A DNA stretch of 32,000 nt from a bacterium 1XD42-54 (GCA_003612585.1 RAZH01000003.1:70968-102967); one strand, 5' to 3'; shown: positions 10,053 through 30,418, counted from the stretch's first letter. Notes: generated by a model from the letters alone, not told the origin. Program-made: numbers and translations.

Positions 10053-11846
10053 TTATAAATTGAATATTTCTTCCAAGTCCTCATCGGACAGAAGCTCATA
10101 GGATGTGCTGACAGGGTTAAGCGCAACAGCGTCTTTTGGAATATCCCCGCCAAACACAAAGGTTGCGACCGCCTGCGTCGGCTCGCCGTGGATATACGGC
10201 GGCTTCCCCCCGTCGGCGGTCAGTTTCACATTCGGGTGTTTCAGGATGTCGTACTTCAAATCCATGACGGGGCGTTCCCCACGCACAAAAAGAAGTGCGT
10301 AGCGGTTGTCTAGCATACGCACCTCGTCTGGCGTTAAAAGCTCACGCCCCGAAATCTGGTAGTTAGTGGAATAGTTGCCGCTCCGCCCAGAGCTTTTCCC
10401 GTAGGTGTTGGTGTCTATCGTGGCTTTTCCAAGAAGCTCACTTACAAACTTATGGGTACTCTGCTCGTTGCCGCCGAGATAGAGGAACTCATCGGCATTG
10501 CCGACAATGCTTTCCCACTGTTTCTCAAACAGGGCTTTGAGCTGTGCCAGATTTTGCAGGATAATCGAAACGGACACGCCCCTTGACCTCATAACTGACA
10601 GTATCTTGTCAAAGTCATCGGGCAGCGAAACATTGGCAAATTCATCCATAATAAACTGGCAGTGGACGGGCAGACTCCCGCCGTACTTATGGTCGGCGAG
10701 GTAGAATAACTGTTGGAATAGCTGCGTGTATAACAGCGACACAAGGAAATTGAAACTGGTGTCGTTGTCTGGTATCAGTGCGAACAGTGCGACTTTCTTC
10801 TCCCCCAAAGACGGCAAATCCAATTCATCTGTGGCGGTCAATCCTGCAAGGCTTTCCAGATTAAACTTCTCAAGCCTTGCGGCAAGGGTTATCTGGATGC
10901 TCTTTAGCGTTTTGGCTGAACCAGAATGGTAATCTCTGTAATACTTTAATGCGATATGCTCTGGGTTTACCATCTCCAAGCGGTCAAACAATTCGTCAAG
11001 CGGGCTTACATAGCTGTCGTCATCCTCCCTTACCTCACCTGCCCTTAAAAGCTCCATCACCATCGGGAAATTCTGTTCCTCTGGCGGGGCTTCGTATTTC
11101 AGATAGAACACGAGGGACAATAGAAGCATACTCGCCGCCGTGTCCCAGAACGGGTCTTGCGACTGTGAGCCTTTCGGCGTGGTCGCCTTAAAGAGATTCG
11201 TCACAAGCCGCTGCACGTCGTTGTCGTTCCGAAGATAAACAAACGGGTTGTAACAGTGGCTCTTGTGCATGTTGATTAAATCAAGCACACGCACCTCATA
11301 GCCTTTCTTTTCCAAAAGCCCGCCCGTGTCACGGACAATCTCGCCCTTTGGGTCTAAGATTACCATTGACGTGTTGCACTGCATCACGTTCGGCTTACAA
11401 AAAAATCTGGTCTTTCCTGCACCAGAGCCGCCCACCACGAGGATATTCAGATTCCTCCTGTGCTTCTTCCCGTCAAGCCCGATGCGGACGCTCTGGGTCA
11501 GCAGCTTGTTCTCCGATGCGTCCTTATCTCGGTATTTTTTATTAAGCGTACCTGCGTTGCCCCATTTGGCAGAGCCGTGTTCCTCCCCTTTGCGGTAGTT
11601 CCTGCGTGTGGAAAAATAAACGCCGATTCCCATGCCGTAGGCAAGCAGAAAAATAAGGACAGTTTTCACGCTGTCCTTACACACCGTTATGGAAAACGGA
11701 TTCTCGATTGCTGCGGATAAGTTGCCGATTATCTCCACGATGCCGCCGCTGATATAAGGGGCTGTCAGCAGGGCAAGCCACACGACAGGGATAATGCCGC
11801 ATAAAGAGAGGATTAAGCCCGCCTTGTAATCATCACCGTTCTTCAT
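10053..11846 (-). CDS. virD4: VirD4/TraG-type coupling protein (CD1115-family type)
   Basis: 597 aa. Two N-terminal TM segments, Walker A VVGGSGAGKT and Walker B-like FIMDEFAN. Its start overlaps the upstream small gene by 14 nt. Confidence 0.95.
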   Translation of the reverse strand: MKNGDDYKAGLILSLCGIIPVVWLALLTAPYISGGIVEIIGNLSAAIENPFSITVCKDSVKTVLIFLLAYGMGIGVYFSTRRNYRKGEEHGSAKWGNAGTLNKKYRDKDASENKLLTQSVRIGLDGKKHRRNLNILVVGGSGAGKTRFFCKPNVMQCNTSMVILDPKGEIVRDTGGLLEKKGYEVRVLDLINMHKSHCYNPFVYLRNDNDVQRLVTNLFKATTPKGSQSQDPFWDTAASMLLLSLVFYLKYEAPPEEQNFPMVMELLRAGEVREDDDSYVSPLDELFDRLEMVNPEHIALKYYRDYHSGSAKTLKSIQITLAARLEKFNLESLAGLTATDELDLPSLGEKKVALFALIPDNDTSFNFLVSLLYTQLFQQLFYLADHKYGGSLPVHCQFIMDEFANVSLPDDFDKILSVMRSRGVSVSIILQNLAQLKALFEKQWESIVGNADEFLYLGGNEQSTHKFVSELLGKATIDTNTYGKSSGRSGNYSTNYQISGRELLTPDEVRMLDNRYALLFVRGERPVMDLKYDILKHPNVKLTADGGKPPYIHGEPTQAVATFVFGGDIPKDAVALNPVSTSYELLSDEDLEEIFNL

Positions 11847-12030
11847 GGCACTTGCACGGGGCGACCTTTACTTTCTTGGTCGGGGCGAATGCCACCCTGC
11901 TTATCAGCTCGTCAACAGGCTCGGTGGGGCGTTCCTCCTGTATCTGCTGCGTCCGCAGGGTGTTGAGGGCATTGAGGACGATGTTCTTATCGTATTTATC
12001 CAATGCCAGATGGTATCGTTCTTCTTTCAT
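11833..12030 (-). CDS. Small conserved hypothetical protein
   Basis: 65 aa from ATG 12030. The track start at 12039 is a GTG inside the GGAGGTG RBS. It ends ...CKCHEER. Confidence 0.7.
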   Translation of the reverse strand: MKEERYHLALDKYDKNIVLNALNTLRTQQIQEERPTEPVDELISRVAFAPTKKVKVAPCKCHEER

Positions 12031-12045
12031 TGGCTGCACCTCCGA

Positions 12046-12909
12046 TTAGCGTTCCTGCTCTTTGGATTTGGGCGGCTTGTTCTTTTCAAGGCTCTTATAC
12101 ATGTCCGACTGGATTTCGCCGAGGACGTCACGCATCGAGCCAAGCTCGCCTTTAAATTCCTGCGTTTCCATACCCTCAAATTCTTTCGGGAGCTTGTCAA
12201 AGCTAAAACCTTTCGTGTCCACGCCGTAGCGGGAGCTTACCATATAGGCAACGCAGAACGATTTGAACTCTGAAGCGTCACGGCTTTCCTTATGCTTGAA
12301 GTCAAAGACCGCCGCCGACACTTCCTTTGCCATGCTGACAAAGAGCTGTTCCTCGGAAAGCCCCGTCTTGATGAAGATGGTCTGCTGTGCGCTGTCGTAG
12401 AACGCAGGCAGCTCAAGGTCGTCCACTGGCACAAAGGAAACGGGGCTTGCGTCAATCATCGCCGACACAAGCTCCCGCATGGTTTTGGCTTCCTGCGGCT
12501 GCTGCCTGTCCTTTGCCGAGGTCTGGGAAATGTCATAGACTATCTTGGCGTTGTAGCCGACCGCCTTTGAGCCGTCCTCCCGCTCATACTCTTTCCCCGG
12601 CTCAAGGATGGTGACTTTCTGTGCGTCCTTGTCCACATAGGCACGGCTCTGTTTCCAACTGCCGTAATCTTTAAGCTGCGTCGCTTCGGGCATCTGTGCC
12701 GAAACCAAGATGGCGTTGTTGACGGAGTAGCGGTCAAAATGCCCCTGCACGTCAAGGTACTGGCGAAAGCTGTCGCCGTCCGCCATCATTTCAGAACAGG
12801 TATTGTCAATCAGCCCATAGGCTTCTTTCCGCTGCTCCTGCTTTTGGGCAGCCCATTCCTCTTTGTTAAAGGCTCTGTTGCCGCCGCTGAATACATCATA
12901 AATGCTCAT
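12046..12909 (-). CDS. Stand-alone ArdC-N-like (ssDNA-binding antirestriction-type) protein; paralogue of the N-terminal module of the polyvalent protein
   Basis: 287 aa with RBS AAAGGAG. NNAILVSAQMPEATQLKDYGSWKQSRAYVDKDAQKVTILEP aligns by eye with LLIYAQRPDATAVAEIGTWNRLFKRWVNKDSKGIAVFDP of the big ORF. SFCVAYMVSSRYGVD likewise aligns with NSVAYMLLSRCGLD. Confidence 0.75.
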   Translation of the reverse strand: MSIYDVFSGGNRAFNKEEWAAQKQEQRKEAYGLIDNTCSEMMADGDSFRQYLDVQGHFDRYSVNNAILVSAQMPEATQLKDYGSWKQSRAYVDKDAQKVTILEPGKEYEREDGSKAVGYNAKIVYDISQTSAKDRQQPQEAKTMRELVSAMIDASPVSFVPVDDLELPAFYDSAQQTIFIKTGLSEEQLFVSMAKEVSAAVFDFKHKESRDASEFKSFCVAYMVSSRYGVDTKGFSFDKLPKEFEGMETQEFKGELGSMRDVLGEIQSDMYKSLEKNKPPKSKEQER

Positions 12910-12911
12910 GC

Positions 12912-13766
12912 TTATCTCGCTCCTTTCGATTTTGGTTTCCGTTTCCGCTTCTGGGGCTGTTTATGCTCCGTCTTTCCTGCGGGCGGTTTCTTCGACCTGT
13001 CAGAAGATTTCTCTTTTGCAGGGGAAACATCCGCTTCCTGCTCCTTGCGGCTCTCCTTTATCTTCCGCAGTTCTTCCCTGACTGACGGTTTCTCCGCCTT
13101 AGCCATAGCAGCCCCCTCTGCGGGCTTCCTTTGCTGCTTTAAGGTAGGCTCGGACAGAGGGGATTTTTCTGTCTTTGCCACCGAGGGGTTTGGGGCGTTT
13201 TCCTCCTTTTGGAGCGGCTTGCCCATAAGGGCGTCCATGAGCCTGTCTTTCTCCGCCTTTTCCTCCACGCCGACGTCTGGCTCTGGCTGACCGTCCTTTG
13301 CATCTGCATCTTTTACATCTGCGGTTTTGTCAGCTTTCGCCTTTTCCCCTTTCGATTTCTCCGCTTCGGTCACAATGGAAGCAGTATCTACCGACGCAAG
13401 GCTGAACCGCTCCACAATGCGGCTGATTTTCGATGCGTCCTCGGCTCTCGCAATCACGTCCACCTCCGCATTGGGGTCTTTGTTCCCCCTGTCTGCCAAA
13501 ACGCAGTAGAGTACGCCGTATTTCTTCGCTTCCTGCGTGAACTTCTTCAAGTCGCCGCTCTTTACGGTAAAGACTTTCAGCTCCTTGCCAGAGCGGAGCA
13601 TGTTTGTGAGCCTTGCCTTTCCTTTGGTTTTCTGTTCTTCCTTTAAGATGGAATATAAGAGGATGGCGATGTTCTTCGCACCCGCCCCCGTGATTCTGGC
13701 TGCGACCTCAAATCCCTCCAAGCTCATCCTTACGATTTGCTCCGCCGCTTCGCCGCCTGTGTTCAT
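12912..13766 (-). CDS. pcfB: PcfB-family (DUF3801) protein
   Basis: 284 aa with RBS AAAGGAG. N-terminal PcfB-like domain (IVRMSLEGFEVAARITGAGAKNIAILLY ... KELKVFTV ... YGVLYCVL) followed by a long K/E/P-rich tail. Confidence 0.85.
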   Translation of the reverse strand: MNTGGEAAEQIVRMSLEGFEVAARITGAGAKNIAILLYSILKEEQKTKGKARLTNMLRSGKELKVFTVKSGDLKKFTQEAKKYGVLYCVLADRGNKDPNAEVDVIARAEDASKISRIVERFSLASVDTASIVTEAEKSKGEKAKADKTADVKDADAKDGQPEPDVGVEEKAEKDRLMDALMGKPLQKEENAPNPSVAKTEKSPLSEPTLKQQRKPAEGAAMAKAEKPSVREELRKIKESRKEQEADVSPAKEKSSDRSKKPPAGKTEHKQPQKRKRKPKSKGAR

Positions 13767-16067: not shown

Positions 16068-17057
16068 TCAGCGGGCATCCCTTCTTTCACGGCTCGGTTT
16101 CTGCCTTGCAATCCCCAGATAGGACATTAAAAAATCGTTGAAGTCCTTGCCAACTGGCGGCGGTTCATCAACGATTTGGTAGTCTTTCTGCAATAATTCT
16201 TTCAATGCGGCGGTACATAAACGACCTGCCCTGTCCTTATCCAGATGCAGAAATATGGTCTTGATTTGTGGATTTGCTTTCAAAAAAGTCGTGAGGGCAA
16301 TAGGAATTTTGCTTTCTTTCAGCTCTTTCTTCGGCTGATATACGCCCGACAGCGAGAGAAGATTCTCTGCCTTATAATCCTTTCCCTCGCATTTTAAATA
16401 GGTGGCATAGGATAATAAATCAATGGCGGCTTCAAATAAATGCACGGCATCGGTCGGGTCTTTTGCCAGAAGCCGAAACGAATACCGCTTGTCGCTGCCC
16501 GATGCGTCACGCTTGAAGTTCCCCATCGTGCCACGGCAGGCAGCATATTTTGGCGTTCCGTTCTCATCTTTCCCGATAAAAACGGCGTTGTGGTAGTCGG
16601 CACTCTCGAAAATAATCCCCTCGGCAATGCACTCTTGAATAATCTGGTAGTCAATGCCACGCCCGAAAAGATACTCTGCCACCCTGTCACAATTTTTGTT
16701 CTTCGGCGGCAGGAGCAGCACCTTTGGCTCGTCTTTCTTCACGGCAGGGGGCGGCGGTTTCCAGTCCGCCATCGTCTGCCCCGTGAGGGTTTCCACGGCT
16801 TCCACAAATCCGTATTCCTTGACTTTCATCAGATAGTCAAGGGCAGAATAGCCGCCGAAGCCCCTCGACCACCAGTACCATTTTCCGTTGGAAATCTTTA
16901 GGCTGTCATGCTCGGCGGTACAGTAGACGTTCGTCGTGCCTTTGACTTTGACAAGGTTGCTCGGCTCATAGGCTCTAAGATAGGAGAGTAAATCTATCTG
17001 CCTTGCCTGCTCAAGCACGTCGGGGTCAATCTGCACATAGGGTCTGTTACTTCTCAT
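16068..17057 (-). CDS. DUF3991 + Toprim domain protein (primase-like)
   Basis: 329 aa. N-terminal zinc-less primase-like region (KWYWWSRGFGGYSALDYL) and a Toprim-like C-terminus (VHLFEAAIDLLSY ... IFLHLDKDRAG). Confidence 0.9.
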   Translation of the reverse strand: MRSNRPYVQIDPDVLEQARQIDLLSYLRAYEPSNLVKVKGTTNVYCTAEHDSLKISNGKWYWWSRGFGGYSALDYLMKVKEYGFVEAVETLTGQTMADWKPPPPAVKKDEPKVLLLPPKNKNCDRVAEYLFGRGIDYQIIQECIAEGIIFESADYHNAVFIGKDENGTPKYAACRGTMGNFKRDASGSDKRYSFRLLAKDPTDAVHLFEAAIDLLSYATYLKCEGKDYKAENLLSLSGVYQPKKELKESKIPIALTTFLKANPQIKTIFLHLDKDRAGRLCTAALKELLQKDYQIVDEPPPVGKDFNDFLMSYLGIARQKPSRERRDAR

Positions 17058-17245: not shown

Positions 17246-17968
17246 TTATTCTATTAAATTAGGATATCCTACATCTAAATCATATCCTGTACCATCTTCA
17301 TTTCGTTTTAATTCGTAATATTGAATATACTCGTTTGTCATGCTGTCCGCAAACCAGATAAAAAATGTGACTCTTTTTCCCATTTTGTATGTTTGAACAT
17401 TTAGTAATATTTCTTTTTTCTGATTTACTGTAAATACTTCTTTAAAGCTTATACCAGTTAAGTTTTCTCCCGTTCCAAAAGTTAAAGTGTTTGCAAATCC
17501 GTTTCCTATATTTGTAATAGATAAATATATAGGATAAAACTCTTGTGTAGCTTTTCCCTCTACATATTTTGGCTCATCTGCGATTTGAAATTTTTTTACA
17601 GTTCCAGATGGTTTTCCCACCACTTCTACATTAAGAAATGGCTGAATACTTTGTCTTTCCTTTTTTCTATCAGCTTCACGGGTAAACTGTATTGTATAAA
17701 AAACACCAAAAATTGCAATCGTTCCAGAAAATACACCACCAATGATGCCACCCCAGTACGATGCTAGCGACCCAATCCAAGTTGCGTTAGCATCATTATC
17801 AATGGATAATTTGCCTATACTACATCGTATCACCTCTTCACACTTCAAGGACAATAATACAAATAAAATAGCGATAATGATACCCATTAAAACTGGCTTT
17901 ATCCATTTTTTCTTTTTGCGTTTTAATTGATTCTTTCCAAATCGCGATATATCCATTTCATTTTTCAT
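17246..17968 (-). CDS. Unknown two-TM membrane protein with a C-terminal beta-rich soluble domain (low-GC cargo)
   Basis: 240 aa. Basic N-terminus (KRKKKKW), TM1 PVLMGIIIAILFVLLSL, TM2 WGGIIGGVFSGTIAIFGVFYTI, then about 135 aa with no recognisable family. Very AT-rich codons compared with the neighbouring genes. Confidence 0.75.
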   Translation of the reverse strand: MKNEMDISRFGKNQLKRKKKKWIKPVLMGIIIAILFVLLSLKCEEVIRCSIGKLSIDNDANATWIGSLASYWGGIIGGVFSGTIAIFGVFYTIQFTREADRKKERQSIQPFLNVEVVGKPSGTVKKFQIADEPKYVEGKATQEFYPIYLSITNIGNGFANTLTFGTGENLTGISFKEVFTVNQKKEILLNVQTYKMGKRVTFFIWFADSMTNEYIQYYELKRNEDGTGYDLDVGYPNLIE

Positions 17969-18041
17969 TTACTCAACCGCCTTTTCAAATGCCACCGTCT
18001 GCTCCTTCATAGAAATCTTCTTAATCAATTTTTACCGTTTA

Positions 18042-18557: not shown

Positions 18558-18590
18558 ATTCTCACCTGCAACTTCTTATTTATTGCTCTT

Positions 18591-18619
18591 ATTGTACATC
18601 CAGATTATGAATTTTTCAA
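18591..18619 (-). promoter_or_regulatory. Candidate sigma-A promoter for the low-GC islet genes
   Basis: On the minus strand: TTGAAA (18619-18614), 17-nt spacer, TACAAT (18596-18591), about 35 nt upstream of ATG 18557. Confidence 0.45.
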
Positions 18620-19137: not shown

Positions 19138-22100
19138 TTAACGCTCCCTATCTGTGCATTTTTTCTCTGGCTGCTCATCGTTCCGCTCTGGCTCATCGTC
19201 AATCACGGAGTTGTCTTTTTCATTCAGATTCAGTTCGATATTGAGTGCGTTGAGCCGTTCCGTCTTTTCTTTCAGTTCATTTTCAAAGGCAAACGGCTTC
19301 TTTACTTCCTCTTTTGCGGTTTCAAGCTGTGCGATGGTTTCCTCCTTTCTGGTCTTGGCAGCTTCCAGTCTTGCGGGGAGCTTGGCAATCTCATTCTCGA
19401 TTCGAGTAATGTTACCGAGAGCATCCGTTCCTAAATCTACCTTATATTTCCTCATTCCGCAAAGGTTCAGACAATAGTGTGCATTGACAGTATCATAGAA
19501 AACCTCCATTTGAAAGCCACGGTAGCTGCCGATTTGTATCGGCTGTGACAGCGGGTTTTCCTTGCAGATGGCAAGGAGCATCCCGCCTGCATCCGCTTTT
19601 TCTTTGTAGGTCACGCCGTTTAGGGTCATCGGGCAGAACTTGTCCTCGCCCTGCGGCATATGCCGGCTTGCAATCTTGGCATCATTCCCGTAGCCTATAA
19701 TGCGTTCCCCATACTCCTTAATCTCCTGCGGATAGTGCTTTAATATCCTGTCCTCAAGGTCATAATGCTCGGAAAGGTAGCTCTGCTTCAAGACTTTCAG
19801 CTTCGCCACCTGCATATCCAAATCCATTTTTTCCTTGAAACGCTCGTCGCCCGTAGCCAGCATTTTTACTTCCGCAAAAGAGAGGGCGACCTCGTCCATG
19901 TCCTCGGCAGAACGCACGGGGCTTTTGCTCGTCATTATCTGAGAAATAAATTTCTGCTTTCCCTCCACGAGCTGATAGAGGTACGCATCGAATGTTTGTT
20001 CCGTTACATAGCGGTAGACTTCGACTTCTGGAAACATATTTCCCTGGCGTTCCAGACGACCAAGCCTTTGCTCCAAGTCCGAGGGTCGCCAAGGGCAGTC
20101 GCAGTTGTGGATGGCAATCAACCTGTCCTGCACGTTTGTCCCTGCCCCCATCTTCGGGGTAGAGCCTAAGAGGACACGCACCTCGCCGCTCCTTACCTTT
20201 GCGAACAGCTCCCTTTTCTGTGCGTCAGTATTCGCTTCATGGATGAAACGCACCTGCTCCGCAGGGATTCCACGGGCTATGAGCTTCTCTCGGATGTCGT
20301 CATAAATATTAAAAGTGCCATCATTCTTCGGCGTTGAAAGGTCGGAGAAAACAAGCTGCGCCGCCTTTGTGTCGGCATGTTCCTCCCAGATGCGGTAAAT
20401 ATTGTCCACGCAGACGTTGACTTTGCTGTTCGGGTCGTCGGGCAGCATCGGGTCAATCAGCCGCTGGTCTAGGGCAAGCTGCCGCCCGTCGTTTGTCACT
20501 TTGAGCATGTTATCGAATTGTGGTTTTACCAGTCTTGCACGGATTTTCTCTGCCCGCTTCGCAAGCCCCGCCACCATTTCCGTCTGGATTTGGCTCGGCT
20601 TTGTCTTGATGTTGTGGTAATTGACCTTTGGCACGGGCAGCTTCAGCATATCAGCGGTCTGGAGGTCCGCAACCTCACGGAACATCTGCATCAGTTCTGG
20701 CAGGTTGTAGAACTTCGCAAACCTCGTCTTGGCTCGGTAATTCGTCCCCTCTGGGGCGAGTTCCAGAGCCGTGACCGTTTCGCCGAACGTGGAAGCCCAA
20801 CTGTCAAAATGCTGCAAGCCGTTCCTTGCGAGGGTGTCATACTGCAAGTACCTCTGTACGGAATACATCTCGACCATCGAGTTACTGATGGGAGTTCCCG
20901 TTGCGAAAACCACGCCACGGTTGCCCGTGATTTCGTCCAGATAGCGGCATTTCATAAAGAGGTCGGAGCTTTTCTGGGCTTCGGTCTGGGCGATGCCGCC
21001 CACGTTCCGCATCTTGGTGTAAAGATAAAGGTTCTTGTAAAAATGACTCTCATCTATAAAGAGCCTGTCTATGCCCAATTCCTCAAAGTTTATCACGCTG
21101 TCTTTCCGCTTGGTATCGTTGAGTTTATCGAGCTTCGCTTTAATCGCTTTCCTCGTTTTCATGAGCTGCTTGACCGTGAACTGCTCCCCGTGGGATGCCT
21201 GCACGTCATCTATCCCCATCTCTATATCATCAAGCTGGCGCATGAGCTGTTCCCTCTGGCGTTCTTCGCTGATGGGGATTTTCTCGAACTGACTATGCCC
21301 GATAATCACCGCATCATACGCCCCCGTCGCAATCCTGCCGCAGAACTTCTTGCGGTTTCCCGTTTCAAAATCCCGCTTGGTAGTCACAAGGATATTGGCA
21401 GATGGATAGAGCCTTAAATACTCCGATGCCCACTGCCCGACAAGGTGGTTCGGCACGACAAACATGGATTTCTGGCATAAGCCAAGCCGCTTGCTTTCCT
21501 GCGCTGCGGCGACCATTTCAAAGGTTTTCCCCGCCCCTACCTTGTGTGCAAGGAGCGTGTTGCCACCGTAAAGGATATGGGCAATCGCATTGACTTGGTG
21601 GGGTCTTAGCTGGATTTCTGGGCTGATGCCGCCAAATGTGATATGGCTTCCGTCATATTCACGGGGTCGGATAGAGTTAAATGTGTCATTGTAGTAGCGT
21701 ACAAGGCGGTTTCTGCGCTCTGGGTCTTTCCATATCCAGTCCTGAAACGTCTGCTTTATCACCTCCTGCTTTGCCTGCGCCGCCGTGGTTTCCTTATGGT
21801 TCAGCACCGCTTTCTTGTTGTTGTGTTCATCATAAACATAGTCAAAGATGCGGGTGTCACGGAGATTCAAAGTGTCCTCCATGATGCGGTATGCGCTCGC
21901 CCGCTTCGTGCCGTAAGTGCTGTCCGCCTTGACATTCCCAATGTCGGAACTCTTATTCTCAATGAACCAGTCGCCGTTATACGCCGTGTAACGGACTTTC
22001 AATCTGCCCGCCGCATAGCTTGACGGCGTTAAAAGCTCCACCATAAACTGCTGTATATCCTCCTGCGGTATCCACGTCGTACCCAGACGGACGGAGATTT

Positions 22101-25100
22101 CGCTTGCGGGCAAATCCTTTGGGATGACCTTTTCCAGAGCCTCCACGTTGGCTGCAAGCTCTGGGTCTGACTTCGCCGCTATCCCTGCGACTTTCAGTTT
22201 CTCCCGCACATTCCCCGATAAATACTCGTCTGCGGTCACATACCTTGCAGGTTCACAAGACGGCACTTTATAGATTACGCCCTGCAATTCCTTAATGATT
22301 TCTTCCTCCGACCTGCAGGTAAGCCGTGCCATATAGGATAAATCGACACGGGCTTTCTCCCCGATGGAGAGGGCAAGTGCTTCACTCGCCGTTTCCACAA
22401 AGGTCACTTCACGGTGGGGCTTTATCGTCCGCTTCGTGAACATATCCGCCTTGCGTTTGAATTTCCCCTCATCGTCAAGCACTTCCAGAGAACATAAAAG
22501 GAAGTAGCTCTCGTCTGCCGCAAAAGCGAGGTAGTTCCCCCTGCTGTTGATTAAGCCGTACTTTTTGGTAAAGGCATCGTATAATCGGTTTAGGTTTTCC
22601 TGCTCGGTCTGTATCATTTCCTCTGGGCAGTCGTCGGTCTGGTACTGGATGAGCTTCCTCACGCAGTCACGGATTTCCAACAGCCCCTTGATGCGGTTCT
22701 CCGCCGTCATGGACACGTATGCAGGGGTCATCCCGTTATTCTCTCGGAAATAGACCTTTCCTCCCACAAGGGCAAAAGAGAAGTTCCGCACGTTCGGGTC
22801 GGCGGGGATGGCTTTCTCCTGCTCATCGGAGATACGGTCAACCTCATTTTCAATCTCTGGGATTTCGCCGTTTATCCGCTGCATGGCTTCATGGAGAAGC
22901 CCCGCAAACGGCACGTCTGGGTAGGCTTTGCAAACGCTGTCCATGCCGAACCTTGTGCTTTCCATCCTCATCTCGCCAAGCACCATCTCTGGATGCTGGA
23001 CAAAATAGCTGTTCATCGTGACGCCGTTTTCATCCGTGTCAAGATTTATCCACTCTGGCTCAATATCCATGATGCGGTCACGTTTCTGTAAAATAAGGAT
23101 ATCGCTCGTGACCTCCGTGCCTGCGTTTGCCCGAAACGTGTTGTCTGGCAGACGGACAGCCCCTAAAAGCTCGGCTCTCTGTGCGATATACTTCCGCACG
23201 TCTGGGCTTGCCTTGTCCATCGTACCTTTAGAGGTGATGAACATCACAACGCCGCCTGCCCGCACCTTGTCCAGTGCCTTTGCAATAAAATAATCATGGA
23301 TTAAAAACTTCTGGGCGTTATAGCGGCTGTCGTTGACTTTGAACTCCCCGAACGGGATGTTGCCAAGCACCACGTCAAAATGGCTGTCTGGGAGCTTTGT
23401 TTCCTCAAACCCCTCAATGGCGATGCTGGCTTTCTGGTAGAGCTGCTTCGCAATCCTGCCCGATAACGGGTCAATCTCAATGCCGTGCAGCTTTGATTTC
23501 TCCATGCTGTCGGGCAGCAATCCTAAAAAATTGCCCGTACCGCAGGACGGCTCTAAAATGTTCCCCTGCGAAAATCCCAGACGGTCAAGTGCTTCATACA
23601 TTGCCTTAATGACAACAGGCGGCGTATAAAAAGCGGTCAGTGTGGATTCCATAGCGGCATGGTATTCTTCATCGGAGAGTGCTGCTTTTAATTCTTTATA
23701 TTCGTTCTCCCAAGCCGCATTGTTGCTGTCAAACGCCATCGACAGACCGCCCCACCCGACATACTTTGCAAGGGTTTCCTGTTCTTCGGGCGTGGCAAGG
23801 CGGTTTTCTATCTGAAGGTCATGGAGAAGCCTTATTGCGGACATGTTGTTGCGGAACTTTTCTTTTGCGCCGCCAACGCCTAAAGCATCGTCCGTAATGC
23901 GGTAGTTGCGGCGGTCGGCAGAGAGGGCAGGGGCGGACGGTTTCGCCGTAATAGGCGTTTCTATTGTCTGCCCATGCTCTGGCTCGTCAAATTTTATCTT
24001 CTCCACCACAATGTCATAAGGAAGCCCGTTCTCCACGGCGGGGTATTCCGCCACGGTTTCCGTGGTCACATCTGTGCGAGATTGTGTTTTTTCTTCGGTC
24101 TGTGGTTCTTTTTCTGCCTGCTCCAAGAGCCTGCGGACATAGCCGACTTTCTCCACACGGTTTATCGGGAAGCCTGCGTTGTTCTGAAACGTGATGTCAC
24201 GCATGGAAACATCGCCGCTGATTTTCCCGACGCTCTCTATCACATAGCGGCGGTTGTCAATCATAAGCTCTTTGCCGATAAGGTCAGAATTATCCTGCAT
24301 TCCATCTGTTCCAGTCTGGGCAGGCACTAATCTCTGCTGTCCCTCACGCTCTGCATCTTTCGCCGCAAAAAGTTTCGTGATATGCTCCGCATGATTTAAA
24401 GTGTCGGCGTATTCCTGCGCTTCTTCCTCGGTTTCAAAGGTCTGGTAGATGCCGCCTACGTCGTAATATCGGTCGGCACTGTCCTCTGTGGCTTCGTTAT
24501 TCCGTATGATAAACGAGTCGGCAAAGGCATCGGAAGTCTGCTCTACCGTGTAGTGCGGGGGTTGCTCTGTGGCATCAGAACTAATGTCTGGGCTTGGGTT
24601 TTCAGCCGCCTTTGTGTTTTCCTCCCGATAGAACGGCTCAAGCTGTTCCTCCGTCAAGGACACTAAATCGTGGTAATACAGATTGGAAAGTGCGTTCTGG
24701 ATAAGGTCGGCAAGGTCACTGTACTGCGTATATTTTGCAAGAACGCCGTCCACATAGGTTTCCATGCGGTACTGCAAGAGGTTGGCGGATGCCTGTATCC
24801 CGTGCAAGCCGTCCTCGGTATTTTTAAAGGCAATCTTGACGTTGGATAAATCCGTATAGTCCACTTCGGCGTCACCGCCAAACTCCGCATCGCAGTATGC
24901 GTCGATGCAGCCTTTCGCCTGTTCCAGTAGTTCTTCCTCGGCAGGTTCTTTCCTCCTGTGAAACCAGTCCTCCTCGGTAGCCATTATCTTGCCAAGCCGC
25001 TTCTCATCCTCTGGGGTCAGCTCGGTGTTCCGCTCCAAGAACGGGATAAACACGTCATGCCCCAGACGCAGGGATTCCATTTTCTCTCGGTAGTAATCTT

Positions 25101-27723
25101 CCCCCTGCCGTTTCCATTCTGGGATAAACGGGCAGTTGGGGGAGAGGGAATATTCATAGAAATTTCGGATATGGGCGGTTAAATCCCCCTCGCCGTCGCC
25201 GATGTCAAACCGCCCCTCATAATTAAATTCCTCGCCGCCAATGACGGCATGGATTTCAAAATCGGTCTTATGATACCAGCCGACATGGTTATCCTCATTC
25301 TCCCTTTCCCGATGCTGCTTTTCGTCCAGAACGCCGAGCAGCTTATTCCCAAGAGCGAAACTCAAATCCGTAAATCGGTCGTTCAGCTCCTTGTCATAAA
25401 AGGCAGGATGCTCGGAAAATCCGATAGCGAGTGTGATACTGTCAGGCTTTTCCTCGGCAAGTGTTTCTGTTTTCTGGCTCTCGGTGATGACCGTTTTTAA
25501 ATGGTCGTTCGCAGGGTTCTCCTTTAATTTCTGCTCAAAATCCTCCCTGCTAAACTCTTTTCCGAACAACGGGAACTCCGCATTTCGCAGAGAAACGGCG
25601 TTCTCATCAAAGGCGGTAATCTCATATTTATCCGCCCCGATATACACCACGTCGCCCTCGTGATAGAGGTAGCGGAGAGGGTACAGCTCTGTAAGCTCCT
25701 GCGAAAAACGCCACGCATTGCTGCGGCTGTAAACGCTGGCTGTCTTTTTCTGCACAAGGGAGAGGAAGTCTAACATCTCCTGCACGTTGTCGGGATGCTG
25801 CAATGTCTGTTCCATAAGGTCGGCGGGCATATCCGCAAAATCCCCGCATCCAATTACGCCCAACAAATCTTTCTCATAGCCATCCAAGTCACGGATAAAG
25901 TCGGAGAGCCGCAGGGCGAGCGTGTCCCGCTTGTCCGCAGGGGGCAGCTCCCTTTTTTCCTCAATAAAACGCTGCCTTGCAAGTTTCCTCTGGGTGTCGA
26001 TTTCATACTGCGGGGCAGAGATGCTTTCCAGATAGTCGGCATAGTGGTCTTTCTCTTTGGGATTGAGGTAGCGGTTATCCTTAACAAGCTCCCGCAGCCG
26101 CATTTCCGCTTTCGACCAGCTTAAAACAAGGTCGTGTTCGGTGGAGATGCCGTCACGGTCAATGGAGATTCCCTTGCCGCTGTACCACACATACCCCTCC
26201 GTGCCGTCTGAAAAATCAACAAAGAAACCGCCCGTGCCGTATTCCCTTTTCAGAAAATCAATGTTCTTCTTTTTATCTTCCTGCTTCTGGAACTGGTGGT
26301 AAATACGGTATTTCCCATTCGCAACGCTGTTCCCTTTTACAAGGACGGCGTCAATATCCTCCTGTGAAACGGCAAAAGCAGAGGCTTTCTCGTCCTCTGC
26401 TTCAGCTATCATTTCAATCTGTTCGTCTACGGTCGGGAGATTGGCGGCAACTTCTTCCTCATTGGCAAGTGCCGTGGCTGCTTTTTCTTCCTGCCTGCCG
26501 CCGTCCGACTGCGGCTCTGGTTCTGAATTTCCTAATTGAAAATCAGCTCGTCCAGTATCATTTCCTCCGCCTGGCTGCGGATGCTGTTCATCATGCCAAG
26601 CCACTGCATCGGGGCTTTCTCTTTCAGCTCCTCCGTCACTCCCTGCTCGGCTGCTAACTGCTTCGTCAGAAGCTCCAGCCGCTGCAACGCCGTCTGCTCG
26701 GTCTGGTAAAGGTGTGCGTTCAGCCTGCTCGACGTCAGCAGATTGAGATAGGTCACTCTTTTGTGCTGTTCCAGATAATCCCTGTGCATCAAAGCGTACC
26801 TGCCAAGCGGAAGCTCTGGCTCTGTCGGTAATGTCAGGTCGGGTATAAGGTAGTCCGCCTGCTTCGTGTAAGTGATTTCGCCCATTATCTTCACTCCTTT
26901 CGGGTTGTTTCCTGCCTTTATCATACTGGCTTGCGATGTTCCTTGCAAATGTGCGGTTCTGACCTCTAGCTTCGATTTGCACATTTCGGACTGCCGCAGA
27001 GATTTCCCGCAACGCCATCTCGGAAATGTCGCTCGTGGCGATGCCGATGGCGTTCAGCGTCTGGGGCGTGTTGAAATTTGTAATCTCCGCAAAGTCCTCA
27101 CGCTCAAAATACCCGTCCGCATCCAGACCGCAGCGGCTTAACAGCATATATGCGACGCTGTTTGCGGCAAGCCGCTTATAAATCACTTCTATATTATAGT
27201 CGTCCAGTTCCTCTAAAAAGCTGTCTTTCGTGCAGCCCTTTAGCTGTGAGAGGTAATCGGGCAGATTATCCTCCACGGCGTTCTCCGCCGTCCCTATTAA
27301 AAACGTGGCAAGGTCGCCGCTCTCCGTGCCGCCGAACCTGTCCGCAAGCCGCTCCATGACGGGCTGCTCGTACCGCTTATCCATCTGCCATATCGGGACG
27401 GCTCGGCTGCCGTAGTAGCCCTCATGGGTGTCGGAAACGTCAAAATAATATTTCAGCGTGTTCCTGCGCCCTTTCGGGTCAAAGACCGCTATGCCTTTGC
27501 TGTCTTTATTTACCCACCTTTTAAAGAGCCTGTTCCATGTGCCAATCTCGGCGACTGCCGTAGCGTCGGGGCGTTGGGCGTAAATCAAGAGCTGCTCGTC
27601 AAAGCGGCACTTGTAATTGTGGCAGGCAGAGGATAAAAAGCCCTGCCAAGCCTGCGGGTTCTTTGCGACCGCCATCCCCGTGCGGCGGTACAGCTCCGTA
27701 ATAAGCTGGTACTTTGCAGCCAT
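19138..27723 (-). CDS. Polyvalent protein: ArdC-N-like module + disordered linker + conserved polyvalent-associated modules + N6-adenine DNA methyltransferase + SNF2/DEAD-like helicase + coiled-coil tail (phage P1 DarB-like architecture)
   Basis: 2861 aa from ATG 27723 (RBS AAGGAGGTG; the track ORF extends to 27786). The ArdC-N-like module spans about 26990-27723. Methyltransferase motif I is ILEPSCGTGNF (about 23524-23559) and motif IV is LGNIPFG (23347-23367). Helicase motif I is AHKVGAGKTF (about 21521-21552), motif II is IDESHFYKN (21031-21060) and motif VI is QRLGRLERQG (about 20042-20080). Confidence 0.95.
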   Translation of the reverse strand: MAAKYQLITELYRRTGMAVAKNPQAWQGFLSSACHNYKCRFDEQLLIYAQRPDATAVAEIGTWNRLFKRWVNKDSKGIAVFDPKGRRNTLKYYFDVSDTHEGYYGSRAVPIWQMDKRYEQPVMERLADRFGGTESGDLATFLIGTAENAVEDNLPDYLSQLKGCTKDSFLEELDDYNIEVIYKRLAANSVAYMLLSRCGLDADGYFEREDFAEITNFNTPQTLNAIGIATSDISEMALREISAAVRNVQIEARGQNRTFARNIASQYDKGRKQPERSEDNGRNHLHEAGGLPYTRPDITDRARASAWQVRFDAQGLSGTAQKSDLSQSADVEQAERTPLPDRADGVAAAGASDEAVSSRAGSDGGAERESPDAVAWHDEQHPQPGGGNDTGRADFQLGNSEPEPQSDGGRQEEKAATALANEEEVAANLPTVDEQIEMIAEAEDEKASAFAVSQEDIDAVLVKGNSVANGKYRIYHQFQKQEDKKKNIDFLKREYGTGGFFVDFSDGTEGYVWYSGKGISIDRDGISTEHDLVLSWSKAEMRLRELVKDNRYLNPKEKDHYADYLESISAPQYEIDTQRKLARQRFIEEKRELPPADKRDTLALRLSDFIRDLDGYEKDLLGVIGCGDFADMPADLMEQTLQHPDNVQEMLDFLSLVQKKTASVYSRSNAWRFSQELTELYPLRYLYHEGDVVYIGADKYEITAFDENAVSLRNAEFPLFGKEFSREDFEQKLKENPANDHLKTVITESQKTETLAEEKPDSITLAIGFSEHPAFYDKELNDRFTDLSFALGNKLLGVLDEKQHRERENEDNHVGWYHKTDFEIHAVIGGEEFNYEGRFDIGDGEGDLTAHIRNFYEYSLSPNCPFIPEWKRQGEDYYREKMESLRLGHDVFIPFLERNTELTPEDEKRLGKIMATEEDWFHRRKEPAEEELLEQAKGCIDAYCDAEFGGDAEVDYTDLSNVKIAFKNTEDGLHGIQASANLLQYRMETYVDGVLAKYTQYSDLADLIQNALSNLYYHDLVSLTEEQLEPFYREENTKAAENPSPDISSDATEQPPHYTVEQTSDAFADSFIIRNNEATEDSADRYYDVGGIYQTFETEEEAQEYADTLNHAEHITKLFAAKDAEREGQQRLVPAQTGTDGMQDNSDLIGKELMIDNRRYVIESVGKISGDVSMRDITFQNNAGFPINRVEKVGYVRRLLEQAEKEPQTEEKTQSRTDVTTETVAEYPAVENGLPYDIVVEKIKFDEPEHGQTIETPITAKPSAPALSADRRNYRITDDALGVGGAKEKFRNNMSAIRLLHDLQIENRLATPEEQETLAKYVGWGGLSMAFDSNNAAWENEYKELKAALSDEEYHAAMESTLTAFYTPPVVIKAMYEALDRLGFSQGNILEPSCGTGNFLGLLPDSMEKSKLHGIEIDPLSGRIAKQLYQKASIAIEGFEETKLPDSHFDVVLGNIPFGEFKVNDSRYNAQKFLIHDYFIAKALDKVRAGGVVMFITSKGTMDKASPDVRKYIAQRAELLGAVRLPDNTFRANAGTEVTSDILILQKRDRIMDIEPEWINLDTDENGVTMNSYFVQHPEMVLGEMRMESTRFGMDSVCKAYPDVPFAGLLHEAMQRINGEIPEIENEVDRISDEQEKAIPADPNVRNFSFALVGGKVYFRENNGMTPAYVSMTAENRIKGLLEIRDCVRKLIQYQTDDCPEEMIQTEQENLNRLYDAFTKKYGLINSRGNYLAFAADESYFLLCSLEVLDDEGKFKRKADMFTKRTIKPHREVTFVETASEALALSIGEKARVDLSYMARLTCRSEEEIIKELQGVIYKVPSCEPARYVTADEYLSGNVREKLKVAGIAAKSDPELAANVEALEKVIPKDLPASEISVRLGTTWIPQEDIQQFMVELLTPSSYAAGRLKVRYTAYNGDWFIENKSSDIGNVKADSTYGTKRASAYRIMEDTLNLRDTRIFDYVYDEHNNKKAVLNHKETTAAQAKQEVIKQTFQDWIWKDPERRNRLVRYYNDTFNSIRPREYDGSHITFGGISPEIQLRPHQVNAIAHILYGGNTLLAHKVGAGKTFEMVAAAQESKRLGLCQKSMFVVPNHLVGQWASEYLRLYPSANILVTTKRDFETGNRKKFCGRIATGAYDAVIIGHSQFEKIPISEERQREQLMRQLDDIEMGIDDVQASHGEQFTVKQLMKTRKAIKAKLDKLNDTKRKDSVINFEELGIDRLFIDESHFYKNLYLYTKMRNVGGIAQTEAQKSSDLFMKCRYLDEITGNRGVVFATGTPISNSMVEMYSVQRYLQYDTLARNGLQHFDSWASTFGETVTALELAPEGTNYRAKTRFAKFYNLPELMQMFREVADLQTADMLKLPVPKVNYHNIKTKPSQIQTEMVAGLAKRAEKIRARLVKPQFDNMLKVTNDGRQLALDQRLIDPMLPDDPNSKVNVCVDNIYRIWEEHADTKAAQLVFSDLSTPKNDGTFNIYDDIREKLIARGIPAEQVRFIHEANTDAQKRELFAKVRSGEVRVLLGSTPKMGAGTNVQDRLIAIHNCDCPWRPSDLEQRLGRLERQGNMFPEVEVYRYVTEQTFDAYLYQLVEGKQKFISQIMTSKSPVRSAEDMDEVALSFAEVKMLATGDERFKEKMDLDMQVAKLKVLKQSYLSEHYDLEDRILKHYPQEIKEYGERIIGYGNDAKIASRHMPQGEDKFCPMTLNGVTYKEKADAGGMLLAICKENPLSQPIQIGSYRGFQMEVFYDTVNAHYCLNLCGMRKYKVDLGTDALGNITRIENEIAKLPARLEAAKTRKEETIAQLETAKEEVKKPFAFENELKEKTERLNALNIELNLNEKDNSVIDDEPERNDEQPEKKCTDRER
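26532..26885 (-). CDS. tnpV: TnpV-like small protein nested in the +1 frame of the polyvalent ORF
   Basis: 117 aa from ATG 26885, preceded by GAAAGGAGTGAAGATA (AAGGAG, 8-nt spacing). The sequence MGEITYTKQADYLIPDLTLPTEPELPLGRYALMHRDYLEQHK ... GVTEELKEKAPMQWLGMMNSIRSQAEEMILDELIFN matches my recollection of the TnpV family of Tn4451-type elements. It has a balanced, helical composition, unlike typical out-of-frame noise. Confidence 0.55.
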   Translation of the reverse strand: MGEITYTKQADYLIPDLTLPTEPELPLGRYALMHRDYLEQHKRVTYLNLLTSSRLNAHLYQTEQTALQRLELLTKQLAAEQGVTEELKEKAPMQWLGMMNSIRSQAEEMILDELIFN

Positions 27724-27737
27724 AGGCTCACACCTCC

Positions 27738-28196
27738 TTATCGTTCCATTTCTTTGTTTTTCTGCTTCCTGTCGTATTCCCCGCACCGTTCGGCGATTTC
27801 GGAATACATCTTTTCCCGCATGTCCCGCTCATAGGCTCGGTATTCCCTTGCCTTTTCCGTGGGCTTGTACCAGACGCTGTTCTGGTCGGCTTCGTCCATC
27901 TGCTCATAGCGGTCGTCTATCTTATCCATATATTTCTGATAGATGGCATGGGCGGCGGGGGCGTCCTTTGCGTAGCGGTAACGGGCAAGGCTCTTATGCG
28001 TCCCACGAAGCTCGGCATACTCATAGAGCATACGGATGACCTCACGGTCAAGCCCTTTCTGCCCCTCGGCGTCATAGATTTCCGACAGTCCCTTACATCT
28101 CCATGAGTGGTACGGAGAAGTGTCGTTGGAGCTGTGGGAAGATACATACACGCCGTCTTTCTTTACCGTGATGCGGTTGATAAGCTCGGTACTCAT
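27738..28196 (-). CDS. Conserved hypothetical protein
   Basis: 152 aa. Its stop lies inside the RBS region of the polyvalent gene. It ends KQKNKEMER. No recognisable domain. Confidence 0.78.
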   Translation of the reverse strand: MSTELINRITVKKDGVYVSSHSSNDTSPYHSWRCKGLSEIYDAEGQKGLDREVIRMLYEYAELRGTHKSLARYRYAKDAPAAHAIYQKYMDKIDDRYEQMDEADQNSVWYKPTEKAREYRAYERDMREKMYSEIAERCGEYDRKQKNKEMER

Positions 28197-28267: not shown

Positions 28268-28492
28268 TTAGGCAGGGGCATAGCTGATTTTGTTTTGTTC
28301 CATCCTCCGTGCAAACTCCCGAACGGCGTACCTTACGCCGTCAATCTCTGCATGGACTTCGTCCAGATAGCGGCAGACGGCAAAATAATCTTCCCCGTTC
28401 CCGTAAAGCATACGGATGATGCCGCCATCAGAGACAGAAAAAAGCGTCCTGCCTTTGCTGTCTGTCATGCAGACCTGCCTTGCTGCGCTCAT
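28268..28492 (-). CDS. Small hypothetical protein
   Basis: 74 aa. Its ATG 28492 forms an ATGA overlap with the stop of the upstream 68-aa gene. Confidence 0.65.
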   Translation of the reverse strand: MSAARQVCMTDSKGRTLFSVSDGGIIRMLYGNGEDYFAVCRYLDEVHAEIDGVRYAVREFARRMEQNKISYAPA

Positions 28493-28695: not shown

Positions 28696-28707
28696 ATCCC
28701 ATACCTC

Positions 28708-29406
28708 CTATCGCTCATGGTTTTTGTGCTTCGGAGCTTTCTGCGCCGCCTGCGGCTCTTGCGGCTTCGGCTCGCAGCTATGCCCGTTCCTTTCCATACG
28801 CTCGGCAAACTCGCAGATGTGATAAAGGTTGCTGCCCACTTCGGTATGGTATTCGTCAATGAAACGGCAGCTCTTTTCCGCCTTTTCCCCCCAATCATAA
28901 GTGATAATGATTTTCCCGCCATCTGGGATGCGGAACAGCTCTTTATAATGTGGGTCGATAAAGCGGATTCCCTGTTCCGCTCTGGATATATGCTTATCGA
29001 GCCATTCTTTCACATAGCAATAGCAGTAAAAATTGTAATCGCCCTTTGTCGGGTTGCAGCGGAGCAGGAAAGCGTGCTTATCGGTGTCCACACGGAATCC
29101 GTACTCGGTACAGTAATTACCCTTAAAGGCACTTTCGGGATTCTCCCTCGCAAATACCGCCATGTCATAGCGATTGTGCAGAAGCCCCTTATCTTCACGC
29201 AGGGTATTGATAACATCGTCCAGTCCTGCCTTAAATTCATCGGTTTTCCATTGTTCCCTCGTATCCGTCCAAGAAGTATAAAAGCCATATCCAGAGGGGG
29301 CAAAATCACCTCGGAGATGCCCAATACATCCCGTCTGCCCTTCAAGCTGCATACTCTGGGCGTAGGTGTATTTCTGTTCTGGCTGCGTCAAAGCCCGTAC
29401 CTCCAT
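28708..29406 (-). CDS. Conserved hypothetical protein (Cys/aromatic-rich; unknown function)
   Basis: 232 aa from ATG 29406, which forms an ATGA overlap with the upstream gene's stop; the track ORF extends to 29481. It ends APKHKNHER. Confidence 0.8.
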   Translation of the reverse strand: MEVRALTQPEQKYTYAQSMQLEGQTGCIGHLRGDFAPSGYGFYTSWTDTREQWKTDEFKAGLDDVINTLREDKGLLHNRYDMAVFARENPESAFKGNYCTEYGFRVDTDKHAFLLRCNPTKGDYNFYCYCYVKEWLDKHISRAEQGIRFIDPHYKELFRIPDGGKIIITYDWGEKAEKSCRFIDEYHTEVGSNLYHICEFAERMERNGHSCEPKPQEPQAAQKAPKHKNHER

Positions 29407-30011
29407 CAGCGTTCCTCCCTGCTCTTTGATTTTTTTGTTTTTTCCTGTTCCTTGATTTTTGCGAGGGCTTCTTTTGCCCATTCAGGCATCTTCTCTGGCT
29501 TGATTTCCCCAAGCACGTCGCACCGTTCCCATCGGGCGTGCTTTCCGTCCGCAAGGGAAGTGCCGAACACCGCCTGCCCCCTGCCGCCCAACGCACCGTG
29601 ACCGCCGTCCGCCAGTACAAGCTGGTAGGCAGAATGCCTGTACTCATGGCGGTTGACCTCGGCATTGATGACCACGACCTTGCCCACAATGCTGCCACAT
29701 TTGTCGTCTGGGATGCAGTCGTCTATGGTAAACGGGGTCATGTCAAACTTGAACTGTTCCTGCTCGGCTCTTACATTCTCTATCTGTTCCTGCACCCTGT
29801 CGGTAAACATCTGCATGGCTTCCAGATAGTCGTCAGAGCCGACCGCATCCGTCACCCATTCTGCGGACAGCGGGTTGTCGTAAGTGCAATAGCAGACAAG
29901 ATACGGGTATTCCTCTTTCTCATCTATGCCGAACACGACTTCCTTTTTTCCGATGTGGATGCTCTGCGTGACCTCGTAGGAGCTAATCATCCGCTTTTCT
30001 TCATTCTCCAT
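29406..30011 (-). CDS. Conserved hypothetical protein
   Basis: 201 aa with RBS AAGGAAGGAG. It ends KTKKSKSREER. Confidence 0.8.
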   Translation of the reverse strand: MENEEKRMISSYEVTQSIHIGKKEVVFGIDEKEEYPYLVCYCTYDNPLSAEWVTDAVGSDDYLEAMQMFTDRVQEQIENVRAEQEQFKFDMTPFTIDDCIPDDKCGSIVGKVVVINAEVNRHEYRHSAYQLVLADGGHGALGGRGQAVFGTSLADGKHARWERCDVLGEIKPEKMPEWAKEALAKIKEQEKTKKSKSREER

Positions 30012-30159
30012 CGGGATTCTCCTTCCTTTTCTTTTTCTCCCTCTGCCAGTCTAAAACCTTTCGGATACAGACGTCGCAGAAGATAACACGGCTGTCCTTA
30101 TATCGGGGGTAAGGACAATCCGTGCAGTCATATTTCTTTTCCTTACCGCTCTCGGTCAT
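30001..30159 (-). CDS. Unlisted small CxxC...CxxC zinc-ribbon-like protein
   Basis: Hand translation gives 52 aa: MTESGKEKKYDCTDCPYPRYKDSRVIFCDVCIRKVLDWQREKKKRKENPDGE. It fills the otherwise empty 30012-30142 gap and overlaps both neighbours (17 nt and 11 nt). The RBS is only weak (AAGGCG, about 12 nt upstream). Confidence 0.4.
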   Translation of the reverse strand: MTESGKEKKYDCTDCPYPRYKDSRVIFCDVCIRKVLDWQREKKKRKENPDGE

Positions 30160-30418
30160 CGTGCTGCTTCGCCTTTTTATCGGGCTGTTGATTGTATGGC
30201 ATCTGGCACTCCGACTGGTAGCGTTTGTTCAGCTTTTCCCTCGCCGCTTCAAGGGTGTTGCAGTAGCAGCCCCAATAGTAGTTGTCGCCGCCCTTGCAGT
30301 ACCAGCATACATAAGGGTTCGGGGCTGTCGGGTGATGCCCGATGACAAGCTCCGTGTTCCCGATAGTGCAGCCCTCTATGATTTCATAGCCCTGATTGGA
30401 GCGTGTTCCACCGTCCAT
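30143..30418 (-). CDS. Small Cys/Tyr-rich hypothetical protein
   Basis: 91 aa from ATG 30418 (RBS AGAGGAGGA; the track ORF extends to 30469). Motif PYVCWYCKGGDNYYWGCYC. It ends KKAKQHDDRER. Confidence 0.7.
   Translation of the reverse strand: MDGGTRSNQGYEIIEGCTIGNTELVIGHHPTAPNPYVCWYCKGGDNYYWGCYCNTLEAAREKLNKRYQSECQMPYNQQPDKKAKQHDDRER

Follow-up and report, generated by a model that had tools for sequence, protein, structure and literature searches.

The window analysed here is the whole stretch of 32,000 nucleotides from bacterium 1XD42-54 (GCA_003612585.1, RAZH01000003.1:70968-102967), and its real genes were all located on the minus strand. Pfam and NCBIfam searches showed that it represents a Gram-positive integrative conjugative element (ICE) of the broad Tn1549 family, and this work concerns a short Lys-rich C-terminal tail, ending in Glu-Arg (ER) or a similar x-Arg pair, which is carried by ten of its proteins. 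The transfer backbone included a NikA-like protein, a MOBP-type relaxase, PcfB/DUF3801, a VirD4-like coupling protein, a Maff2/TrbC-like protein, a VirB6-like protein, PrgI, VirB4 and DUF6075, with Pfam matches for the MOBP relaxase (PF03432), VirD4 (PF02534), VirB4 (PF12846), PcfB/DUF3801 and PrgI. The same set (MOBP relaxase, VirD4, VirB4, PcfB/DUF3801, PrgI) is listed for the Tn1549 family in PMC12084326, and VirD4 scored 522.8 bits against the NCBIfam model conju_CD1115 (cut-off 250). Like Tn1549-family ICEs, the element combines a backbone of MOBP relaxase, VirD4, VirB4, PcfB, Maff2 and PrgI with a polyvalent protein, here of 2861 amino acids (aa) with LPD25, N6-methylase and SNF2 helicase domains, and a DUF3991-Toprim protein was also encoded. 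Based on gene content, the element is assigned to the Tn1549 family at the broad-family level.

Seven minus-strand open reading frames (ORFs) were found to end in Glu-Arg-stop, with the endings quoted in a first-pass annotation of the sequence, and the three further x-Arg ends that it had listed (DUF6075, PcfB and Toprim) were also present. The ten carriers, with the positions of their tail codons in brackets, were:

5245..5670, minus strand: DUF6075 protein; tail ..PKKQAEHTR (5248-5277)
11833..12039, minus strand: 68-aa protein; tail ..KVAPCKCHEER (11836-11865)
12046..12909, minus strand: 287-aa putative distant ArdC-like protein with a probable single-stranded DNA (ssDNA)-binding domain; tail ..KNKPPKSKEQER (12049-12078), ending ..KSKEQER
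12912..13766, minus strand: PcfB/DUF3801 protein; tail ..RKRKPKSKGAR (12915-12944), an AR variant
16068..17057, minus strand: DUF3991-Toprim (primase-like) protein; tail ..KPSRERRDAR (16071-16100)
19138..27723, minus strand: polyvalent protein (LPD25, N6-methylase, SNF2 helicase); tail ..EQPEKKCTDRER (19141-19170), ending ..CTDRER
27738..28196, minus strand: 152-aa protein with no assigned function; tail ..RKQKNKEMER (27741-27770)
28708..29406, minus strand: 232-aa Cys/His-rich protein with no assigned function; P/Q-rich linker followed by tail ..KAPKHKNHER (28711-28740)
29406..30011, minus strand: 201-aa protein with no assigned function; tail ..KTKKSKSREER (29409-29438)
30143..30469, minus strand: 108-aa protein with no assigned function; tail ..KKAKQHDDRER (30146-30175)

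The earlier description of the carriers as unrelated to one another mostly stood, with the correction that weak similarity was detected in two pairs: the 287-aa protein with the N-terminus of the polyvalent protein (E 8e-5), and the 201-aa with the 108-aa protein (short, E 1e-3). The 287-aa protein showed 26% identity over 87% of the query to ArdC-like-annotated proteins (tblastn, E 1e-12), a sub-threshold 18 bits to the NCBIfam ICE HExxH family (cut-off 200) and nothing at E below 0.01 in the Pfam search. The small carriers of 68, 152, 232, 201 and 108 aa, together with two of 106 and 84 aa found beyond the window, had zero matches in Pfam and NCBIfam, and a Foldseek search of the PDB with the AF2 model of the 232-aa protein (pLDDT 68) was without match.

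Inspection of ORF ends also confirmed that the tail is missing from the membrane and cell-wall proteins of the T4SS (type IV secretion system) as well as from the low-GC cargo. The tail-less proteins of the window were VirB4, VirD4, the VirB6-like and Maff2-like proteins, PrgI, the lysozyme/CHAP hydrolase, the sortase, the SpaA adhesin, NikA, the low-GC cargo genes, a two-component system and the relaxase, which ends ..DELGGI and had already been noted as lacking the tail. The SpaA adhesin has a hydrophobic segment and a basic tail ending ..KKKED. The tails themselves have no hydrophobic segment, which ruled out a sortase sorting signal, and an ssrA-like or signal-peptide-type tag was rejected on sequence grounds.

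The claim that these endings could not be due to chance was borne out at P values of approximately 1e-10 to 1e-12. Under the tails' own composition (E 0.107, R 0.087), the probability that at least 7 of 10 proteins end in ER was 7e-13, and with a generous ER-end background of 0.5% the probability for at least 7 of 29 genes was 1e-10. In 80 related genome loci from Lachnospiraceae and other Clostridia, an ER end was found in 420 of the 3875 ORFs with at least 40 aa on the same strand, compared with 59 of 6447 on the opposite strand, where 53 of the 59 belonged to a single antisense shadow family. No opposite-strand ORF of 100 aa or more had this end (0/221). Chance was therefore rejected by both the composition-corrected and the background tests.

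Orthologues of the carriers in the 80 loci retained the terminal dipeptide as follows:

Polyvalent protein: ER in 44/44 orthologues whose alignment reaches the C-terminus
152-aa protein: 47 ER, 6 GR
232-aa protein: 78 ER (76/77 in the same-strand gene clustering)
201-aa protein: 69 ER, 4 GR
108-aa protein: 69 ER, 2 GR, 1 other; position -3 varies between R, P, H, C and Y

When same-strand genes of these loci were clustered, the families were bimodal, with approximately 100% or approximately 0% R-terminal members. At positions -1 and -2, Shannon entropy stayed at 0-0.4 bits in six of the seven tail families for which at least 12 unique tails were available, and it rose to as much as 2.6 bits at positions -3 to -12; the exception was the polyvalent set, which includes truncated ORFs. 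Control families showed no entropy dip at -1/-2, and tail-less neighbour proteins had non-R ends which were more variable (ES/KE/SD; TE/ME/AE/GE). Similarly, among 120 homologues of the 232-aa protein in databases (70-95% identity), 112 ended in ER, with H, Y, L, R, M or N at position -3 and a P/Q-rich linker varying in both sequence and length. The check on orthologues proposed with the first-pass annotation thus showed that the terminal ER or xR is kept as the linker and positions -3 to -12 drift.

Further carriers were found beyond the window: a ParB-like protein ending ..QER or ..HER in 63 of 65 loci, ParA, which always ends ..RADRIR, the 106-aa protein (..NAYER) and the 84-aa protein (..KDHER). 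In total, the tail was found on at least 13 families, each with thousands of homologues, and never on the VirB4, VirB6, Maff2, PrgI, sortase, hydrolase and adhesin families. Clostridioides difficile and cultured Lachnospiraceae were among the organisms with close homologues. In diverged elements with 32-80% protein identity to the window (a Cohnella plasmid, Monoglobus and Subdoligranulum replicons and IMG/VR contigs), the same orthologues were tailed, with E, A, T or S at position -2. There the 68-aa orthologues ended EER, ESR, AAR or EAR, the ArdC-like ones QER, EAR, TTR or YER, the 201-aa ones KER or RER and the polyvalent ones YER or LAR, and a DUF3846 protein ended ..DMER. Orthologues of the x-Arg proteins ended KER (four), ETR and, once, KSK for PcfB, DAR, FAR, PER, IER or PTR for Toprim, and ISR or PAR for DUF6075. 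An ordinary homologue search with the 287-aa protein gave only relatives at least 95% identical, which are uninformative on deep conservation, and representatives of clusters at 50% identity (32-56% identical to the query) were used instead. Of these, 96 of 106 full-length ArdC-like representatives ended in Arg (40 AR, 37 ER and a few VR, SR, GR and DR).

The family-weighted profile of the tails gave the consensus K(-7)-x-K(-5)-D/E(-4, 64%)-x-E(-2, 76%)-R(-1), in which the 100% R at -1 is by construction, as only R-ended tails were pooled. For the class as a whole the consensus was written [K/R]-x-[K/R]-[D/E]-x-[E/A]-R-COOH, and in every carrier the motif reaches the last residue. Lys and Arg made up 18% and 10% of tail residues, respectively, yet of the 166 unique tails 157 finished with Arg and a single one with Lys. 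Judged by sequence, PcfB, Toprim and DUF6075 are assigned to the same class as the seven ER proteins because the feature that does not vary is Arg as the last residue, preceded by Glu or Ala at -2. In the AF2 model of the 232-aa protein, pLDDT fell below 50 at residues 218-232, and the tail is thus modelled as a disordered, Lys-rich appendage.

An internal control for the tail was present within the window:

28268..28492, minus strand: 74-aa paralogue without a tail, corresponding to residues 143-213 of the 232-aa protein at 38% identity; ends ..ISYAPA

This paralogue ends exactly where the linker and tail of the 232-aa protein start, which argues that the tail is an add-on, and its orthologues in related loci likewise end ..ISYAPA. 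A paralogue of the 68-aa protein (60-70 aa; L001:2090-2281 and equivalents in approximately 50 loci, outside the window) was found upstream of ParA with only the last ~9 residues missing; it mostly ends ..KRMKIEYV without a tail, and one sub-group is extended to ..GGSDVR. In addition, variants of the 232-aa protein with another C-terminal domain (P0073-type) still end ..KPKDYER, and polyvalent proteins of 1522-3208 aa kept the tail. Overall, these comparisons point to a modular add-on.

Codon usage at the tail ends was variable. The terminal Arg of the polyvalent orthologues was encoded by CGT, CGA, CGG, AGA and AGG, five codons from two codon boxes, the tail Glu by GAA or GAG, all three stop codons occurred and the downstream sequences differed. 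The tail ending is under purifying selection at the amino-acid level, because neither the Arg and Glu codons nor the stop codons or downstream contexts are constant. The suggestion of a recognition signal acting at the protein level thus gained support from the conserved end, the codon variation, the disorder and the modularity.

A strictly terminal motif on the flexible tail of approximately a dozen unrelated proteins suggests an address tag read by one receptor. Fixed motifs of 2-4 residues at the chain end, placed on unrelated proteins by a flexible linker and read by one receptor, are familiar from PTS1 (-SKL) and -KDEL. These serve eukaryotic organelle targeting, and the likeness is one of analogy only, with no evolutionary relation. 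The carriers fit classes that are known or predicted to travel with conjugative DNA, and a C-terminal signal for docking to, or translocation by, the VirD4/T4SS apparatus is therefore the favoured reading, held with moderate confidence. A short linear signal at the end of the disordered appendage would be read by a single receptor of the conjugation apparatus of the element, most probably the VirD4-type coupling protein. The tail would then bring soluble proteins for DNA handling and establishment to the type IV secretion channel, namely the ArdC-like, ParB-like, ParA, methylase-helicase polyvalent, Toprim and PcfB proteins and several small proteins without assigned function, and at least some of these would be delivered with the DNA into the recipient. 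The single reader, its identity as VirD4 or another part of the T4SS and translocation as the outcome are each inferred. The motif itself is restricted to one functional class of element proteins, DNA-handling or establishment.

Published systems provide precedents for such cargo. The F-like pED208 system translocates ParA, ParB, SSB and PsiB (PMC8406263), and in Cre transfer assays with it positively charged C-termini, which serve as T4SS signals in Gram-negative systems, were sufficient as a generic translocation signal (PMC11288057). ArdC is needed in the recipient and not in the donor (PMC7213743), and Tn1549-like polyvalent methylase-helicase proteins are predicted to be injected with the DNA and to function in the recipient (PMC5512222).

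The candidate reader of the tail was located directly downstream of the 68-aa gene, which overlaps its start (translational overlap):

10053..11846, minus strand: VirD4-like coupling protein (CD1115 family), candidate tail reader; acidic C-terminus ..SYELLSDEDLEEIFNL (10056-10103)

Its acidic C-terminal motif YELLSDEDLEEIF was conserved, and the conserved acidic ending as a whole (10056-10103, minus strand) reads YELLSDEDLEEIFNL. An acidic end of this kind would be an attractive partner of a basic tail and may be a docking tail comparable to the C-terminus of F TraD; VirD4 would be the putative receptor. The motif was also considered as a receptor feature co-occurring with the tails and was rejected as such, since more distant, tail-poor Tn1549-type coupling proteins have a similar end (FDYYEIxEADLQED).

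Several observations weigh against docking and translocation. An acidic end like that of VirD4 here is not confined to tail-rich elements, and no receptor feature was pinpointed. The tail is only modestly positive in net charge, with values for the last 17 residues of +1 to +9 in nine of the ten carriers and -1 for the polyvalent protein. The motif is missing from the relaxase, which is the only T4SS substrate that is certain; elsewhere, relaxases rely on internal signals. The genes for PcfB, DUF6075 and the 68-aa protein lie within the T4SS operon, and these proteins may be active in the donor alone; the tails on these three make donor-side docking equally possible. Finally, the tail was found in 0 of 19 element genes of a Streptococcus suis plasmid (VirD4 43% identical to that of the window) and in 0 of 33 coding sequences of the pCF10-like plasmid pTEF2. 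The coupling proteins of both are assigned by NCBI to the CD1115 family, as is that of the window, and a signal general to all CD1115-family coupling-protein systems was rejected because these two plasmids are without the tail.

Across elements, tails were dense where VirD4 was at least 57% identical to that of the window (L081-L087, L091, L092). In canonical Tn1549-type contigs (VirD4 40-46%) they were sporadic, with some ParA-, ParB- or PcfB-like proteins ending ..ER or ..AR and no tails in other contigs. The window element thus differs from Tn1549-family ICEs in general, in which tails are dense only in this sub-clade and otherwise sporadic or absent. A megablast search of the T4SS region against plasmids gave no match. 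As a separate observation, at least 80 IMG/VR contigs (among L083-L166) encode a CD1115-type VirD4 with T4SS neighbours and appear to be ICEs or ICE-prophage composites classed as viral.

The evidence from conservation and modularity would fit equally well if the tail were a tag for a hub on the donor side, binding a common partner there (the relaxosome, ParA, PcfB or the T4SS at its cytoplasmic face) without export. Such a tag would concentrate the DNA-processing proteins of the element at the transfer site, and the tails on products of the T4SS/relaxosome operon (PcfB, the 68-aa protein overlapping virD4, DUF6075) and on the ParA and ParB-like proteins are consistent with it. However, the antirestriction-type protein and the methylase-helicase have no obvious role at a donor site unless they are exported, and the predicted place of action of polyvalent proteins is the recipient (PMC5512222). 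Both the hub and the concentration of proteins at it are considered rather unlikely.

A stability tag or degron appears less plausible still. In this case the exposed terminal Arg in the disordered tail would mark the proteins for turnover, or shield them from tail-specific proteases, and so tune ICE protein levels; a possible route is arginine phosphorylation by McsB followed by ClpCP degradation. The tail is indeed disordered and accessible, it is limited to soluble cytoplasmic proteins and it ends in Arg with Lys practically excluded (1/166 unique tails). Nevertheless, no bacterial C-degron is known to have such a form, and one precise degron would have to be kept for so long in approximately a dozen families and yet be absent from the regulators and the relaxase of the element. 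The conserved Glu or Ala at -2 and the acidic residue at -4 also speak against a degron, as they suggest a specific binding pocket.

The nucleotide-level motif (GAR-CGN-stop) that had been offered as an alternative, by which purine-rich 3' ends (AAR, GAR, CGN, stop) would aid translational coupling or the next ribosome-binding site and the peptide would be a by-product, draws on a GGAGG within a few bases of the stop or an overlap with the next start in approximately 4 of the 7 genes, but is contradicted by variable wobble positions, codon boxes, stop codons and downstream contexts, by the polyvalent and 108-aa genes, which keep ER without an adjacent downstream start (79- and 132-nucleotide gaps), and by the R kept in deep relatives while all else changes, and is regarded as very improbable.

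The remaining gene content of the window comprised cell-surface genes (sortase, lysozyme/CHAP hydrolase and SpaA-type adhesin) and two low-GC insertions with 33-38% GC compared to approximately 52%:

17246-19059: low-GC insertion with three cargo genes (membrane protein, P-loop kinase-like protein, DUF6664); no product with the tail
137-1931: low-GC insertion with a histidine kinase and response regulator pair (two-component system); no product with the tail

Two gene starts were corrected. The start of a '257-aa' ORF was moved to 29406 on the basis of homologue lengths, resulting in the 232-aa protein. The polyvalent gene was assigned the ATG at 27723, 14 nucleotides past the stop of the 152-aa gene and preceded by GGAGG right after that stop, and not the GTG at 27786 of the mechanical ORF, which falls inside the 152-aa gene. 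Three antisense ORFs shadow tail genes on the plus strand (28717-29601, 294 aa; 29538-30086, 182 aa; 30122-30448, 108 aa); a naive longest-ORF caller chose these over the real genes, and none had homologue support.

Gene fusions were also observed among relatives of the carriers. At L032:1554-4118, a ParB-like carrier was fused to a large serine recombinase (Resolvase, Recombinase, Zn ribbon, DUF4368) in a protein of 854 aa which still ends ..NKAHER. In the window, the 201-aa and 232-aa genes overlap as TGATG (29404-29440), and approximately nine database homologues (including P0034, P0036, P0047, P0084 and P0101) were 201-aa/232-aa fusions of 409-433 aa. Their junction, ..KSRKVGRNAD-MEIR.., corresponds to the A-rich tail-coding region of the upstream gene in another frame, and the fusions could be due to a homopolymer sequencing error or be real frameshift variants that remove the upstream tail.

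Among characterised signals, the closest in form is that of the Agrobacterium VirB/D4 substrates VirF, VirE2, VirE3 and VirD5, a C-terminal Arg-rich pattern R-x7-R-x-R-x-R (Vergunst et al. 2005, cited in PMC8406263). Like the ICE tail, it sits at the very C-terminus in an unstructured segment and occurs on unrelated proteins. It is positively charged with key Arg residues, and most ICE tails are net positive and end in Arg. It is read by a VirD4-type coupling protein, the reader that is only proposed for the ICE tail. It differs in being a loose charge pattern of a Gram-negative effector system, whereas the tail, known here from sequence, belongs to a Gram-positive ICE and has a sharp terminal [E/A]-R-COOH, an acidic residue at -4 and Lys rather than Arg upstream. 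The pED208 T4SS and its 'conjutome' involve the same kinds of proteins (ParA, ParB, ssDNA-binding and establishment proteins; PMC8406263, PMC11288057), but there no sequence consensus was found and signals are possibly internal, in contrast to the single consensus over approximately a dozen families described here. The Glu-rich E-block of the Legionella Dot/Icm system, bound by DotM (cited in PMC12857230), is also a short C-terminal linear motif on many unrelated substrates with electrostatic recognition by a coupling complex; it has the opposite overall charge, is part of a type IVB system that uses adaptor proteins, and lacks a fixed terminal residue.

A description of the motif was not found in the literature searched, nor was any C-terminal motif described in those parts of the Tn1549 papers PMC12084326 and PMC5512222 that were covered by a search by term. 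According to a 2025 review, the known functions of Gram-positive T4SSs are almost all limited to DNA translocation (PMC12857230). The docking and translocation reading, if true, would represent an unusually sharp signal of a known kind, in organisms where none is defined. It is possible, though put forward tentatively, that [K/R]-x-[K/R]-[D/E]-x-[E/A]-R-COOH is the first sequence-defined Gram-positive T4SS protein secretion signal, marking a 'conjutome' of approximately a dozen proteins for anti-defence, partition and replication priming which abundant gut-Firmicute ICEs would inject into recipients with the DNA. In that case the sequence alone would suffice to predict substrates, and engineered proteins could be delivered between gut bacteria by means of the tail. 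Even as a degron, or as an assembly tag on the donor side, the tail would represent a new kind of element-wide regulation at the protein level. The tailed ICEs belong to the most abundant mobile elements in the gut microbiota, and their crisp terminal motif would provide a testable handle on protein co-transfer, on the reader of the tag, on how recipient defences are overcome and on the spread of resistance genes.

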